This document shows, in pieces, positions 57,843 through 62,868 of a stretch of DNA of 64,000 nucleotides (positions are counted from its first letter, which is position 1; each line of letters begins with the position of its first letter). The position numbers were made by a program, and so were the translations under genes. A model generated the notes under the pieces. It was given only the letters and a program-made list of their open reading frames with translations. It did not search any database and was not told where the DNA came from. Source of the DNA: Escherichia coli (lineage in GTDB: Bacteria; Pseudomonadota; Gammaproteobacteria; Enterobacterales; Enterobacteriaceae); the NCBI RefSeq assembly GCF_003018255.1, contig NZ_CP027440.1; one strand, 5' to 3'.

Positions 57843-57855
57843 AAATCTACTCCAG

Positions 57856-58011
57856 AAAAAAGAGGGTAGCAGCGTTAACTGCTACCCTCGAAGATTGTTA
57901 CCCAGCGTATTGCGGTTTTCAGGCCCGATGGGGAACGACCACCAGGCGTATAGTCTGTCCGTGCTACGTAACAATCGAGAGGGCTGGAATTTCCGCCCCT
58001 GGTTCTTGTAA
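57856..58011 (-). ncRNA. sroC: SroC-like sRNA derived from the gltI-gltJ spacer
   Basis: 169-nt gltI-gltJ spacer ends, on the minus strand, in an 11-bp GC stem (57862-57872 / 57879-57889) followed by a U6 run; SroC is known to be processed from this spacer; 5' end not determinable here. Confidence 0.5.
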
Positions 58012-58920
58012 TTAGTTCAGTGCCTTGTCATTCGGTTCTTTGAACAGTGCTTTCATTTCGTCTGACAGTTCGAAATTCATGTTCAGGTTTTTCGGCGGAA
58101 TTGGATTTTTGAACCACTTATCAAACCATTTTTCCGCTTCACCGGAGGTCTGCACCTGAGCGATGGTATCATCCATCAGCTTTTTGAACTGCGGATCGTC
58201 TTTACGCAACATGCAACCATAGGCTTCCTGAGACTGCGGCTTGCCGACGATTTCCCAGTTGTCTGGTTTCTTCGCTTTCGCACGTTCACCGGCCAGCAGA
58301 GCATCATCCATCATAAAGGCAACGGCACGACCGCTTTCCAGGGTACGGAAAGAGTCACCGTGATCTTTGGCGCTGATGATGCGCATATTCATTTTTTGCT
58401 CTTCATTCAGTTTGTTGAGCAAAACTTCAGAGGTGGTGCCGGAAGTGACGACTACGGCTTTGCCTTTCAGGTCGGCAAAATCTTTGATATCGCCGCCCTT
58501 TTTGGTCAGCAGGCGCGTACCGACCACGAAAATAGTGTCAGAGAAAGCCGCCTGTTTTTGGCGTTCGGCATTGTTGGTGGTAGAACCGCATTCAAAATCG
58601 AAAGTGCCGTTTTGCAGCAGTGGAATACGGTTTTGTGAGGTGATCGGAATCAATTTCACCTGTAAGTCTGGTTTGTTGAGTTTCTTTTTCACTGCTTCAA
58701 CAATGGCGTTGGAGTAATCCTGCGAGTAGCCCACCACTTTTTGCTGATTGTCGTAATAAGAGAAAGGTACTGAAGATTCACGGTGACCGACGACAATCAC
58801 GCCGTTTTTGGCGATTTTGTCCAGCGTACTGCCTGCTGCCGGGGCGGCGTCATCTGCCTGTGCCAGTCCTGCGGAAAGCGCCAGGGCCAGGATTGCTGTG
58901 GCAGGTTTACGTAATTGCAT
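58012..58920 (-). CDS. gltI: Periplasmic glutamate/aspartate binding protein
   Basis: 302-aa product from MQLRKPATAILALALSAGLAQA (signal peptide); track ORF extends 25 codons upstream through the 5' UTR. Confidence 0.94.
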   Translation of the reverse strand: MQLRKPATAILALALSAGLAQADDAAPAAGSTLDKIAKNGVIVVGHRESSVPFSYYDNQQKVVGYSQDYSNAIVEAVKKKLNKPDLQVKLIPITSQNRIPLLQNGTFDFECGSTTNNAERQKQAAFSDTIFVVGTRLLTKKGGDIKDFADLKGKAVVVTSGTTSEVLLNKLNEEQKMNMRIISAKDHGDSFRTLESGRAVAFMMDDALLAGERAKAKKPDNWEIVGKPQSQEAYGCMLRKDDPQFKKLMDDTIAQVQTSGEAEKWFDKWFKNPIPPKNLNMNFELSDEMKALFKEPNDKALN

Positions 58921-58962
58921 ATCCAACTCCTTTATCTTCTGCGTTAAGAACGCATGGATACC

Positions 58963-58986
58963 CGTTGTGAGTGTTTGTGTTGTTAT
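58963..58986 (-). promoter_or_regulatory. C/A-rich element in the gltI 5' UTR, the type of site bound by GcvB sRNA
   Basis: Minus-strand sequence AUAACAACACAAACACUCACAACG lies ~45-65 nt upstream of the gltI start; gltI is a documented GcvB target. Confidence 0.5.
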
Positions 58987-59374
58987 CATCTGCAACTTTA
59001 TTGTGCAGTGTTGTGCTTGTTAGGTAACATTTAGTTTGGCTAAATGTAAAGATATTGCTGTTTTATTGTTTGTTTTTGCGAGATGCGCCGCACCATTCCG
59101 AAGCAAAATTCTTAAATCGCACCTTTTTGGTGCTACCGCTGATTTGTGGTGGTGCAACCCGGTTGCGTCGCGGCTGATTTCATTGCTTACACAGTAAATA
59201 AAGCAACTTACATGCCAAAAAATACTTATAGGTGAATTAATTACGATTGTAATGTTAGGCTGAAATAGTCATATTTCGGACAGGGTTATCTTTTCGGCAT
59301 GGGACGTTTGCCGGGATGATAACTGCACACGGGAAAAATGCTTTTTACCTGTCTTTTCAAGGAAGAATCACCTT

Positions 59375-61252
59375 ATGTCTGCATCTTCGGTTAAGCCGTT
59401 AAATGTTCAATTACCCGCAATAACCCTTATCCTTTTTGCGCTCTGTGTTGGGATATTTTGTTACCTCGCACAATGGATGAGTTATGAAGAAGTCGATCAA
59501 TCCGCACTTATCCATCTCGGTGCTAACGTTGCTTCTCTCACGTTGTCGGGTGAATCCTGGCGCTTATTGAGCAGTGTCTTTCTGCACAGCAGTGTTTCTC
59601 ATTTGCTGATGAATATGTTTGCACTCCTGGTGGTGGGGGGAGCGGTGGAACGTATTCTGGGGAAATGGCGACTCCTGATTATCTTGTTATTCTCCGGCAT
59701 CTTTGGTGGGCTGATCAGCGCCTGTTATGCGTTACGCGAAAGTGAGCAGATAGTCATCAGCGTTGGGGCATCCGGGGCAATTATGGGAATAGCGGGCGCT
59801 GCGATAGCAACACAGCTTTCTTCAGGTGCGGGTACACACCATAAAAACCAGCGGCGAGTATTTTCTCTGTTGGGTATGGTGGCGCTGACACTGTTGTATG
59901 GTGCCCGGCAAGCAGGAATAGATAACGCTTGCCACATTGGCGGCCTGATTGCGGGGGGCGCGTTGGGTTGGCTGAGTGCGCGTTTAGTTGGGCAAAATCG
60001 GCTCGTTACGGAAGGCGGGATTATTGTTGCGGTCACTCTTCTTCTGACCGGGACTATCTGGTTTGTGCAGCAGCAGATTGATGAATCAGTTTTACAGGTC
60101 AGGCAAAGCCTGCGTGAAGCGTTTTATCCGCAGGAGATTGAACAAGAGCGACGACAAAAAAAGCAGCAGTTAGTGGAGGAGCGCAACGCCCTCAGGGAAA
60201 CATTATCCGCTCCGGTAAGTCGTGAGCAGGCCAGTGGTGATTTACTCGCTGAGATTGCCGATATCCATGATATGGCGATCAGTCGGGATGGTAATACGTT
60301 GTATGCCGCAATTGAAAACACCAACAGCATTGTTGTTTTCGACCTCGGACAAAAGAAAATCCTGCATACCTTTACAGCGCCCATAGCGAAAGAAAAGTCA
60401 GTCAAACATTGTGGTGGCTGTAAAGATCAGGGCGTCAGATCGCTGGCATTAAGCCTGGATGAAAAGTTGATTTATGCGACTTCATTTGAAGCGAATGCAG
60501 TATCGGTCATTAACGTGGCGACGGGGGAGATTATTCAGTCGATTACCACCGGCGCCCATCCTGACAGCCTTATCCTCTCGCGTGATGGCACAAAAGCCTG
60601 GGTGATGAATCGCACCAGTAATAGTGTGTCAGCCATTGATCTGGTGACTTATCAGCATGTGACGGATATCCCGCTGGAGAAATACGACGGGACGGGGACG
60701 AGCGGTAAACCAGGCGCCTGGGTTATGGCACTTTCCCCGGATGAAAAAACATTGTTGATACCCGGTATGGTCAGAGGCGACATTGTACGCATCAATACCA
60801 TCACGCATCAGAAAGAAGACTTTCCCACAGGTGATGCGCGTGGTATCGTTTCTGCGATGGGATTCCGACCAAAAAATGGCGAGATTATTTTTGCCGATAG
60901 CCAGGGGATTTCACGTATAAGCGTAGGGGATCAACAAGCCAGCATTATGACGCAATGGTGTAGCAGGAGCGTTTATTCCGTTGAGGGTATTAGCCCGGAC
61001 GGTCAATATTTAGCGTTGGTGTCATATGGCCTGCAAGGTTATGTCATCCTGCTCAATATTAATGCCGGGCAGATTATTGGCGTTTATCCTGCCAGCTACG
61101 TTAATCACCTTCGTTTTTCAGCGGATGGTAGAAAGATATTTGTTATGGCGAAGAACAGGTTAATCCAAATGGACAGGACGCGCTCGCTTGATCCGCAGGC
61201 AATTATTCGGCATCCCCAATATGGCGATGTGGCTTGTATCCCTGAACCGTAA
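59375..61252 (+). CDS. Rhomboid-family intramembrane serine protease (seven predicted TM segments) fused to a C-terminal ~7-bladed YVTN-type beta-propeller
   Basis: 625-aa ORF with AAGGAAG SD ~10 nt upstream; rhomboid signatures WR (62-63), H71-x4-H76-x3-N80, GASGA with Ser133 (nt 59771-59773), H187 in CHIGGLIAGG (nt 59933-59935), seventh hydrophobic segment ~211-230; charged linker, then repeated ~40-aa blade-like segments. Confidence 0.85.
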   Translation: MSASSVKPLNVQLPAITLILFALCVGIFCYLAQWMSYEEVDQSALIHLGANVASLTLSGESWRLLSSVFLHSSVSHLLMNMFALLVVGGAVERILGKWRLLIILLFSGIFGGLISACYALRESEQIVISVGASGAIMGIAGAAIATQLSSGAGTHHKNQRRVFSLLGMVALTLLYGARQAGIDNACHIGGLIAGGALGWLSARLVGQNRLVTEGGIIVAVTLLLTGTIWFVQQQIDESVLQVRQSLREAFYPQEIEQERRQKKQQLVEERNALRETLSAPVSREQASGDLLAEIADIHDMAISRDGNTLYAAIENTNSIVVFDLGQKKILHTFTAPIAKEKSVKHCGGCKDQGVRSLALSLDEKLIYATSFEANAVSVINVATGEIIQSITTGAHPDSLILSRDGTKAWVMNRTSNSVSAIDLVTYQHVTDIPLEKYDGTGTSGKPGAWVMALSPDEKTLLIPGMVRGDIVRINTITHQKEDFPTGDARGIVSAMGFRPKNGEIIFADSQGISRISVGDQQASIMTQWCSRSVYSVEGISPDGQYLALVSYGLQGYVILLNINAGQIIGVYPASYVNHLRFSADGRKIFVMAKNRLIQMDRTRSLDPQAIIRHPQYGDVACIPEP

Positions 61253-61253
61253 G

Positions 61254-61278
61254 AAAAAAGGGCATGATAATCATGCCC
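61254..61278 (-). terminator. Intrinsic terminator downstream of lnt
   Basis: GGGCATGA-taa-TCATGCCC stem followed on the minus strand by a U6 run; begins 2 nt after the rhomboid-fusion stop on the plus strand, where no T-run follows. Confidence 0.6.
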
Positions 61279-61329
61279 CACAACTCAATGAGAAAGTATG
61301 TTTTGTTCATGCCGGATACATCAGGCACA

Positions 61330-62868
61330 TTAATGTTTACGTGCTCGCAGACTCATCAGCACAGCTGCAAAACCAAACAGTGCCGTCAGCACCCACAGCG
61401 GCCAGTTGCCGGTACGTGCGTACGGTGTGAGTCCGGTAGTCGGCGTCACGTTAGTGGTTAACACCTCGCGGGTGAACTGCGGGATCATCGCCTGAATCTC
61501 ACCCTGCGGGCCAATCACCGCCGTAATGCCGTTGTTGGTGCTGCGCAACAGTGGGCGCGCCAGCTCCAGCGCACGCATTCGCGCCATCTGGAAGTGCTGC
61601 CATGGACCAATAGACTTACCAAACCACGCATCGTTGGAGATAGTCAGCAGATAGTCGGTATCCGGGCGGAAGTTATCGCGCACTTGCTCGCCGAGAATGA
61701 TTTCGTAGCAAATGGCCGCAGTAAGTTGAATGCCATTCAACGACAGCGGTGGCTGAATATATGGTCCGCGGCTGAATGAAGACATCGGCAAATCAAAGAA
61801 CGGTGCTAACGGACGCAGTATCGACTCCAGTGGGACAAACTCGCCAAACGGCACCAGATGGTTTTTGTTATAGCGATCGGCTGATTCATAGCTGTACGGT
61901 GCGCCTTTACCCAGTGTGATGATGGTGTTGTAGGTATCGTAGCGGTTCTGTTTATTGAGACGCGCGTCGACAATCCCGGTGACCAGCGAGCTCCCTTTAT
62001 CGCGCAACTCACCGTCCAGAGCTTTGAGGAACGGTTGCTGATTAATTTCCAGATCGGTTATCGCCGACTCCGGCCAGATAATCAACGATGATTTGCCCAT
62101 CAGCGGTGCCGTTGCGTTGTAGTATATCTTCAGCGTATTAAGTAGCTGGTCTCCGTCCCATTTCAGCGATTGCGGAATATCGCCCTGAACCATCGAAACC
62201 TGAATAGTTTTTTCCGGTTGCGGGGTAAACCACTGGATGTAACGCAGCGGGAAGGGAAGGGCAAACAGCACGACGGCCACCACCAGCGGACGCCAGTTGC
62301 GTTTGACCAACGCCAGTGCCAGCAGGCCGCTAACCATCATCAGCAGGAAGTTAATGGCTTCCACGCCCATTATCGGTGCCAGCCCTTTTAACGGGCCATC
62401 AATCTGGCTATAGCCGAACTGTAACCACGGGAAGCCTGTTAGTACCCAACCGCGCAGAAACTCGGTCACTTGCCAGAGAGCAGGGGCGGCAATCGCCACG
62501 CGCAGCCAGGTGGTTTTCGGCCACAGACGCGACAGCACGCCAGCAAACAGTCCGGTATACAGCGACAAATACGCCGCCAGCAGTACCACCAGGAAGATGT
62601 TAACCGGGCCAGGCATTCCGCCAAAGGTCGCGATGCTGACATAGACCCAGTTAATACCGCTGCCAAAGAGGCCAAATCCCCAGCAAAAGCCAATAGCGGC
62701 AGACTGGAGTGGACGGCGGTTAAAGGTCAACGCCTGAAGCCCCATCAGCGAAATAATCGCCGCAGGCCAGACGTCGTAAGGAGAGAAGGCCAGCGTTCCG
62801 CAGGCACCGAATAATAACGCCAGCAGCAGGCGAATGCGCTGGCGTTCAATTAATGAGGCAAAAGCCAT
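61330..62868 (-). CDS. lnt: Apolipoprotein N-acyltransferase
   Basis: 512-aa ORF, N-terminal polytopic region plus C-terminal nitrilase-like domain. Confidence 0.95.

Follow-up and report, generated by a model that had tools for sequence, protein, structure and literature searches.

What is a second rhomboid protease, fused to a large additional domain, doing between gltI and lnt in Escherichia coli? The question is raised by a 64,000-nucleotide stretch of E. coli DNA (contig NZ_CP027440.1, hereafter the window), in which an intact open reading frame (ORF), here called rhom7, begins with ATG and encodes 625 amino acids plus stop (59375..61252, plus strand). The first-pass annotation, made from the letters alone, had proposed it as an extra gene for a rhomboid fused to a periplasmic beta-propeller. 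The ORF listing of the window and RefSeq agree that the gene is real, as WP_001561633.1 from E. coli 2014C-3338, a strain to which the window is 100% identical across the 2.3-kb query region, has identical coordinates and carries the label "rhomboid family intramembrane serine protease". The answer that we consider probable is that the ORF encodes the orthologue of Shigella sonnei Rhom7, an active inner-membrane rhomboid whose periplasmic propeller would act as a protein-docking platform that tunes the choice of substrates. The coordinates of all features are collected in Table 1.

The membrane core has the features expected of a catalytic rhomboid. The Pfam Rhomboid family (PF01694) matches residues 59-201 with an expectation value (E) of 3e-29 and 102.5 bits, a match that qualifies the protein for MEROPS family S54. 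In a phmmer search against solved structures, residues 13-204 align with Haemophilus influenzae GlpG (2NR9, E 6e-11), with the WR, HxxxN, GxSG and H-x-GG motifs all in register ('gasga' is paired with 'glsgv' and 'nachiggl' with 'naahisgl'), so that Ser133 and His187 sit on the catalytic dyad. All of the hallmarks were verified at the residues named by the first-pass annotation, namely W62-R63, H71-x4-H76-x3-N80, G131-A-S133-G-A135 and C186-H187-IGGLIAGGALG. Across a 50-sequence alignment of the family, Ser133, His187, R63 and H76 are each present in 50 of 50 members, N80 in 49 and W62 in 46. The N-terminus ahead of the first transmembrane (TM) helix is 13 residues only. Two narrower assignments were tried and rejected on score: the GlpG equivalog models gave 50.8 bits against a cut-off of 250 (TIGR04239) and 44.9 against 335 (NF008155), and the rhombosortase model TIGR03902 gave 45.6 bits against 84.

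This rhomboid is evidently the E. coli orthologue of S. sonnei Rhom7 (SSON_0610, UniProt Q3Z4D6). The window protein shares 93% identity with two proteins of S. sonnei, P0005 and P0006, and the locus of P0006 reads gltLKJI / rhomboid / lnt-corC-ybeY-ybeZ, as in the window. S. sonnei has two rhomboids only, GlpG and SSON_0610, the latter named Rhom7 for its seven predicted transmembrane domains (TMDs) (Liu et al., EMBO J 2020, PMC7232013). Like the window protein, Rhom7 combines Ser133/His187 numbering with seven TM helices and a large C-terminal domain. The first-pass annotation had mentioned a second rhomboid reported in S. sonnei without being able to tie it to this gene, and the identity, locus and numbering now do so. 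The two proteins are different alleles with about 7% amino-acid differences, and the protease data come from the Shigella allele. In that work, neither the S133A nor the H187A mutant can cut a TatA-TMD artificial substrate, for whose cleavage the seventh TM helix (TM7) and the C-terminal domain are dispensable; plasmid-expressed Rhom7 cuts the TMDs of HybO, HybA and FdnH, as well as full-length HybA and FdnH when they are orphan; and the segments cleaved carry a helix-breaking proline and belong to single-pass proteins (PMC7232013).

The gene and its protease activity are thus already published and the gene is annotated in databases, with activity of the E. coli allele assigned by orthology. 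The first-pass annotation had said that a described function would downgrade its observation, and a published activity is what we found; the observation itself is confirmed, as a lesser discovery. Measured against the searched literature, what appears to be new is the propeller prediction, the two covarying cysteine pairs, the length-conserved linker, the distribution of the family and the analysis of selection. The Rhom7 paper leaves the fold of the C-terminal domain unnamed, and the word 'propeller' occurs in it zero times (PMC7232013). A 2025 review lists Rhom7 (Q3Z4D6) without comment on its domains, and nothing relevant was found in the searched literature for a rhomboid combined with a propeller or with YVTN repeats.

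The C-terminal domain is predicted to be a seven-bladed YVTN propeller. An AlphaFold2 (AF2) model, built from a 50-sequence alignment of full-length relatives, has a mean predicted local distance difference test score (pLDDT) of 86.5, mostly above 85 in the propeller, and a predicted template modelling score (pTM) of 0.63. It contains seven TM helices, two linker helices and 28 beta-strands, which make up seven four-stranded blades within residues 289-600; from DSSP strand order alone, strand 289-292 is read as closing blade 7. The first-pass annotation had estimated about seven YVTN-like blades and listed six repeats, to which the model adds the unlisted blade 5 at about residues 504-539. With the YVTN repeat model of NCBIfam, TIGR02276, the score of 52.8 bits clears the curated cut-off of 27.85, and phmmer matches the propeller in the PDB to 1L0Q (E 4.5e-25) and to E. 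coli YncE (3VGZ, E 4e-4). By structure, too, 1L0Q is the top PDB match: Foldseek ranks this archaeal YVTN propeller (E 6e-17) ahead of G-beta subunits, hydrazine synthase beta and Lp49. Pfam propeller matches are weak (THOC3 1.7e-5, YNCE 1.3e-4, Lactonase 8e-3), and membership of the YncE equivalog was rejected (NF052280, 35.8 bits against a cut-off of 400).

Propellers related to this one, of the YVTN/lactonase type, are found in redox enzymes and ligand-binding proteins, and the domain has sub-cut-off NCBIfam matches to hydrazine synthase beta, to the quinohemoprotein amine dehydrogenase beta subunit and to YncE. Together with the low native activity under laboratory conditions (PMC7232013), this would fit a regulatory sensor, in which the propeller binds a small molecule, a metal or an envelope component and switches the protease, comparable to the YqgP N-terminal domain with divalent cations. 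We regard such a sensor as very improbable: the matches to those specific families are all far below their cut-offs, the residues conserved at a level of at least 80% include no conserved polar cluster hinting at a ligand site, and taking the domain away switched cleavage of the test substrate neither on nor off (PMC7232013).

Several lines of evidence support a periplasmic location for the propeller, as the first-pass annotation had supposed from a seventh hydrophobic segment, which is found at about residues 209-232 and is a helix in the AF2 model. A rhomboid core with its N-terminus inside, followed by an odd seventh helix, would put the C-terminal domain outside the cytoplasm. Lysine and arginine together number nine on the predicted cytoplasmic side, which comprises the N-terminal segment plus three loops, and three in the periplasmic loops. 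Stronger evidence comes from the covariation of cysteines in the 50 family members, whose C-terminal domains hold exactly four cysteines in 40 cases, exactly two in eight, and three or five in the remaining two. The cysteines are lost pairwise, as P0242 and P0164 are without those at 346/349 and keep 529/621, and the reverse pattern is seen in P0092, P0144, P0162 and P0109, which are without C529 and C621 (jointly lost in 4/50 sequences) and keep the 346/349 pair. Because the members of each pair are lost together, the domain would contain two disulfides, 346-349 and 529-621, and would therefore reside in an oxidising compartment. This pattern indicates a periplasmic domain and makes a cytoplasmic location very unlikely.

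The first of these pairs had been noted as a CGGC sequence between the first two blades, and that position is correct. The sequence does not hold up as a special CxxC motif: the spacing is Cx2C only in Enterobacteriaceae, and elsewhere it is mostly Cx4C ('CPHNMC') and ranges up to about Cx12C. This variable spacing, together with a joint loss that is independent of C529/C621, rules out a thioredoxin-like or metal-binding CxxC. CGGC is best read as a shortened version of a Cx4C disulfide loop that runs through the family.

The segment that joins the membrane core to the propeller is constrained in length. From TM7 to the P278/V281/A286/G288 motif, the linker measures 47-48 residues in most of the 50 family members, about 46% of it being E, D, K, R or Q, with a sequence that is itself variable. 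Such constancy of length without constancy of sequence suggests a spacer governing the geometry between propeller and membrane core.

Taken together, these parts suggest how the protein may work. The six-TM core with Ser133 and His187 would cleave TM segments that contain proline, a step for which TM7 and the propeller would not be required. TM7 would carry the chain to the periplasm, where the charged helical linker of about 47 residues would hold the propeller at a fixed distance above the membrane. The propeller would then serve as a periplasmic protein-binding platform on which a partner protein or the folded periplasmic portion of clients docks, and this docking would tune which membrane proteins reach the active site, with the propeller itself remaining outside catalysis. 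Docking of the folded periplasmic part of a client or partner is, we infer, the best-supported role of the propeller, by analogy with the tetratricopeptide repeats (TPRs) of YqgP and ActH. A more specific version can be offered tentatively, as a rather unlikely extension, in which the propeller would be a receptor for the folded periplasmic domains of orphan iron-sulfur subunits exported by the twin-arginine translocation (Tat) pathway (HybA/FdnH-type), or of other clients, and the 47-48-residue linker would be a ruler placing the client TM at the rhomboid gate.

Selection on the gene was estimated from the ratio of nonsynonymous to synonymous substitution rates (dN/dS), computed by the Nei-Gojobori method between the window and S. 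sonnei, E. whittamii, Escherichia sp. MOD1 and a Klebsiella-like orthologue on metagenomic contig L004. The ratio is 0.19-0.24 for the whole of rhom7, 0.22-0.34 for the core and 0.17-0.24 for the C-terminal domain, and this last range argues that the propeller is maintained by selection. In the same comparisons lnt, gltI, gltJ and corC have ratios of 0.00-0.09, and rhom7 as a whole is much less constrained than these housekeeping neighbours.

A domain that is dispensable for proteolysis of the test substrate, yet under purifying selection comparable to that on the core, might also be moonlighting. The propeller would then scaffold or activate a periplasmic or membrane partner apart from proteolysis, leaving the core mainly as an anchor or with a separate role, and there is a precedent in Staphylococcus aureus ActH, whose extracellular TPRs alone activate LytH while the rhomboid domain is dispensable. 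The invariance of the catalytic dyad in 50/50 propeller-bearing members argues otherwise, since protease and propeller have been kept together, and the fixed length of the linker suggests geometric coupling to the membrane core. Nor do the neighbouring genes, which are not conserved, hint at a partner. We consider this alternative unlikely.

The reading of Rhom7 as a protease with a docking propeller has to be set against a number of contrary observations. The link to Rhom7 (SSON_0610/Q3Z4D6) is drawn from species, locus, residue numbering, architecture and the count of two rhomboids. In S. sonnei, cleavage of HybA and FdnH was undetectable at native levels of Rhom7, and a strain deleted for both glpG and rhom7 had no phenotype in many assays (PMC7232013). 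Deletion of the C-terminal domain left cleavage of the artificial substrate unaffected; as this substrate consists of a TMD with 16 periplasmic residues only, it is no test of the docking of a folded domain (PMC7232013). Those residues of the propeller that are conserved at a level of at least 80% look structural (the YVTN repeat signature, Gly, Pro and Cys). The pTM of 0.63 and the superposition of full-length analogues from the AlphaFold Database (AFDB) at a root-mean-square deviation above 20 A mean that the model does not fix where the propeller lies with respect to the active site. Lastly, rhom7 has a dN/dS 5-10 times that of the neighbouring genes, about 40% of complete E. coli genomes are without it, and several of its alleles are broken.

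The last of these observations, with the silent S. sonnei mutant and the undetectable native activity, could also describe a decaying accessory gene, an E. coli relic of little or no current function whose copy in the window has not yet been hit. With presence defined as coverage of at least 80% of the 2.3-kb query, rhom7 was found in 3231 of 5426 complete E. coli genomes (about 60%). Three truncated protein clusters point to independent pseudogenisation in several lineages: P0001, a 440-aa product frameshifted at His187, with 640 member sequences; P0002, a 489-aa product that starts at Met137; and P0026, a 336-aa product without the N-terminus and with C349W. A 531-aa allele from a Logan assembly (P0030) has an in-frame deletion of 94 aa that takes parts of blades 2-4. 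The ends of this deletion coincide with an imperfect 22-nt direct repeat (60444-60465 / 60726-60747; 77% identity, 282 nt apart) that encodes the 'LSxDEK' start of blades 2 and 4, and it looks like a repeat-mediated loss of parts of three blades. General decay is nevertheless quite improbable in our view. A dN/dS of about 0.2 is far from neutral in both domains, even against the Klebsiella-like orthologue (dN 0.38), the main intact cluster has 8814 distinct member sequences, and the allele in the window retains its catalytic residues and all four cysteines. We infer that rhom7 in E. coli is a monocistronic accessory gene under moderate purifying selection that has been lost or broken in many lineages.

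Beyond E. coli, the fusion is by all appearances an established, patchily distributed proteobacterial family (Enterobacterales, Burkholderiales, Rhodocyclales, Pseudomonadales) and no one-off. An exhaustive search of representative proteins returned many relatives that match full length in a single stretch, with 610-690 aa and 28-35% identity, and Budvicia, Cedecea, Janthinobacterium, Duganella, Paraburkholderia and Variovorax are among the genera that retain the whole rhomboid-propeller architecture at about 25-30% identity. The carriers that genome and cluster look-ups and an AFDB search put a name to are Escherichia whittamii, E. fergusonii, Budvicia aquatica, Cedecea neteri, Janthinobacterium, Duganella, Pseudoduganella, Paraherbaspirillum, Uliginosibacterium, Paraburkholderia, Variovorax and Phytopseudomonas. 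On contig L004, from a Klebsiella-like enterobacterium, a 53%-identical orthologue occupies the same locus; its protein is also recorded from Klebsiella sp. RHBSTW-00484, and a related protein occurs in K. aerogenes. Gene neighbours were tried as a clue to substrates and discarded, being unrelated among Janthinobacterium, Uliginosibacterium, Duganella and Pseudoduganella, where they include glycerol dehydrogenase, an S9 peptidase, UbiH, malate:quinone oxidoreductase and an alpha/beta hydrolase.

E. coli genomes without the gene have a different segment in its place (Table 1). About 80 bp at the start of the 154-bp filler are homologous, in diverged form, to what lies upstream of rhom7 (alignment score 51; shuffles reach 25 on average and 40 at most), and the gene-less allele is a replacement rather than a clean absence. 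The filler (L003 4167-4320) also carries a palindrome resembling repetitive extragenic palindromic (REP) elements (GCCGGATAA...GATGCCGCATCCGGT). K-12 has the gene-less allele together with an IS5 at about window 59020-59027, upstream of the polymorphic segment; the statement in the first-pass annotation that K-12 has nothing between gltI and lnt is right in that there is no rhomboid there and wrong in that IS5 is present. Around the segment no mobility genes were found, and the only direct or inverted repeats were 12-27-mers at chance level, in agreement with what had been noted at first. Insertion by a mobile element was rejected on these grounds, on the 53%-identical orthologue at the same locus and on the diverged upstream sequence that the filler keeps. 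Ancestral presence with repeated loss, or else transfer by recombination in the flanks, may account for the pattern. The flanks of gene-carrying and gene-less haplotypes are unusually diverged, at about 92-95% identity, which suggests an old polymorphism.

In the window, rhom7 has on one side gltI, a minus-strand gene whose true start is near 58920, and on the other lnt, also on the minus strand, which stops at 61330. The mechanical ORF of gltI (58012-58995, minus strand) begins at a TTG, 25 codons ahead of where gltI is annotated to start (MQLRKPATAIL..., about 58920). With the annotated start, the intergenic region between gltI and rhom7 is about 454 bp and AT-rich (GC 0.40-0.45). A simple scan gave no convincing sigma-70 promoter upstream of the rhom7 ORF. 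The anaerobic nature of the reported substrates prompted a search for FNR-type sites (TTGAT-N4-ATCAA, two mismatches at most), and no match was found in the region upstream of rhom7 (58921-59374). Over the whole 64 kb, the same pattern occurs 49 times versus 31 +/- 5 expected from shuffles, with zero of these FNR-like half-palindromes upstream of rhom7. An Rfam scan returned a single match, the small RNA sroC (RF00369, 172.6 bits; 57854-58016, minus strand), which lies downstream of gltI, between gltI and gltJ, as expected for the glt operon. Synonymous divergence from S. sonnei is 0.10-0.15 for gltJ, gltI, rhom7 and lnt versus 0.016 for the adjacent corC, which suggests a recombination boundary between lnt and corC.

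Table 1 Features of the rhom7 locus, with positions in the window
Feature	Position	Strand	Basis
Polymorphic segment; gene-less E. coli (O157:H7, NT1F10, K-12) have 154 bp instead	59166..61335	.	Genome comparison
AGGAAG Shine-Dalgarno, 9 nt 5' of the rhom7 ATG	59360-59365	+	Sequence
rhom7 ORF, 625 aa plus stop	59375..61252	+	ORF listing; RefSeq WP_001561633.1 with identical coordinates
Six-TM rhomboid core, residues 14-204, with L1 loop (W62-R63) and TM2 (H71/H76/N80)	59414..59986	+	PF01694; 2NR9 alignment; AF2 helices
Catalytic Ser133 codon (GASGA, TM4)	59771..59773	+	2NR9 alignment; 50/50 family members; S133A inactive in S. sonnei Rhom7 (PMC7232013)
Catalytic His187 codon (TM6)	59933..59935	+	2NR9 alignment; 50/50 family members; H187A inactive in S. 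sonnei Rhom7 (PMC7232013)
Seventh TM helix, residues 209-232, predicted cytoplasm to periplasm	59999..60070	+	Hydropathy maximum 1.87; AF2 helix 209-232
Charged helical linker (helices 237-250 and 253-275), then conserved P278/V281/A286/G288 motif	60071..60238	+	AF2 and family alignment
Predicted seven-bladed YVTN beta-propeller and C-terminal tail, residues 289-625	60239..61249	+	AF2; 1L0Q matches; TIGR02276
C346-G-G-C349, first of the two conserved Cys pairs; 22-residue loop joining blades 1 and 2; putative disulfide loop	60410..60421	+	Pairwise presence/absence
C529, putative disulfide with C621	60959..60961	+	Pairwise loss
C621, near the C-terminus, putative disulfide partner of C529	61235..61237	+	Pairwise loss
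GC-rich terminator-like hairpin between convergent rhom7 and lnt; T-run on the lnt (minus) strand	61259-61279	.	Sequence

Bacterial rhomboids have poorly defined physiological roles and a poorly understood way of selecting substrates, and few of them, Rhom7 included, have candidate natural substrates. The 390-residue periplasmic domain of Rhom7 has so far gone without interpretation. With a predicted propeller, two putative disulfides, a length-conserved linker, constant pairing with an intact dyad and purifying selection, the role of this domain becomes directly testable. K-12, the usual model for rhomboid studies, is without the second rhomboid that most E. coli isolates carry. As a discovery this is modest, given the published gene and activity and the existing database annotation. 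If the receptor and ruler version were true, these proteins would be the first rhomboids with an extracytoplasmic domain for substrate selection.

Finally, the window protein can be placed among known systems. With GlpG of E. coli and H. influenzae it shares the catalytic core and its motifs, alignable over about 190 residues; GlpG differs in having a cytoplasmic N-terminal domain and in having neither TM7 nor a periplasmic domain. With the Methanosarcina mazei S-layer protein 1L0Q and E. coli YncE (3VGZ) the C-terminal domain shares the seven-bladed fold and the YVTN repeat signature, whereas those are soluble or surface proteins without a protease. The closest layout is that of Bacillus subtilis YqgP (GluP) and S. 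aureus ActH, which likewise join a rhomboid core to TM7 and, beyond it, to repeats of a protein-binding kind outside the cytoplasm: in YqgP a C-terminal TPR domain follows TM7, and in ActH the TPR domain binds and activates LytH and acts independently of catalysis. Since these proteins already combine TM7 with an extracytoplasmic repeat domain, the description of the window protein in the first-pass annotation as mechanistically unusual was overstated. Its mention of a built-in propeller for substrate recognition also went too far, as the artificial substrate was cleaved no less well once this domain had been deleted (PMC7232013). The window protein differs from them in having a predicted seven-bladed YVTN propeller with two putative disulfides instead of three TPRs, in the absence of a cytoplasmic N-terminal domain, and in belonging to Proteobacteria and not Firmicutes. 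With no TPR matches, a propeller in their place and an N-terminus of 13 residues, it does not join the YqgP/ActH type as a member, and stands beside it as a protein of analogous layout.

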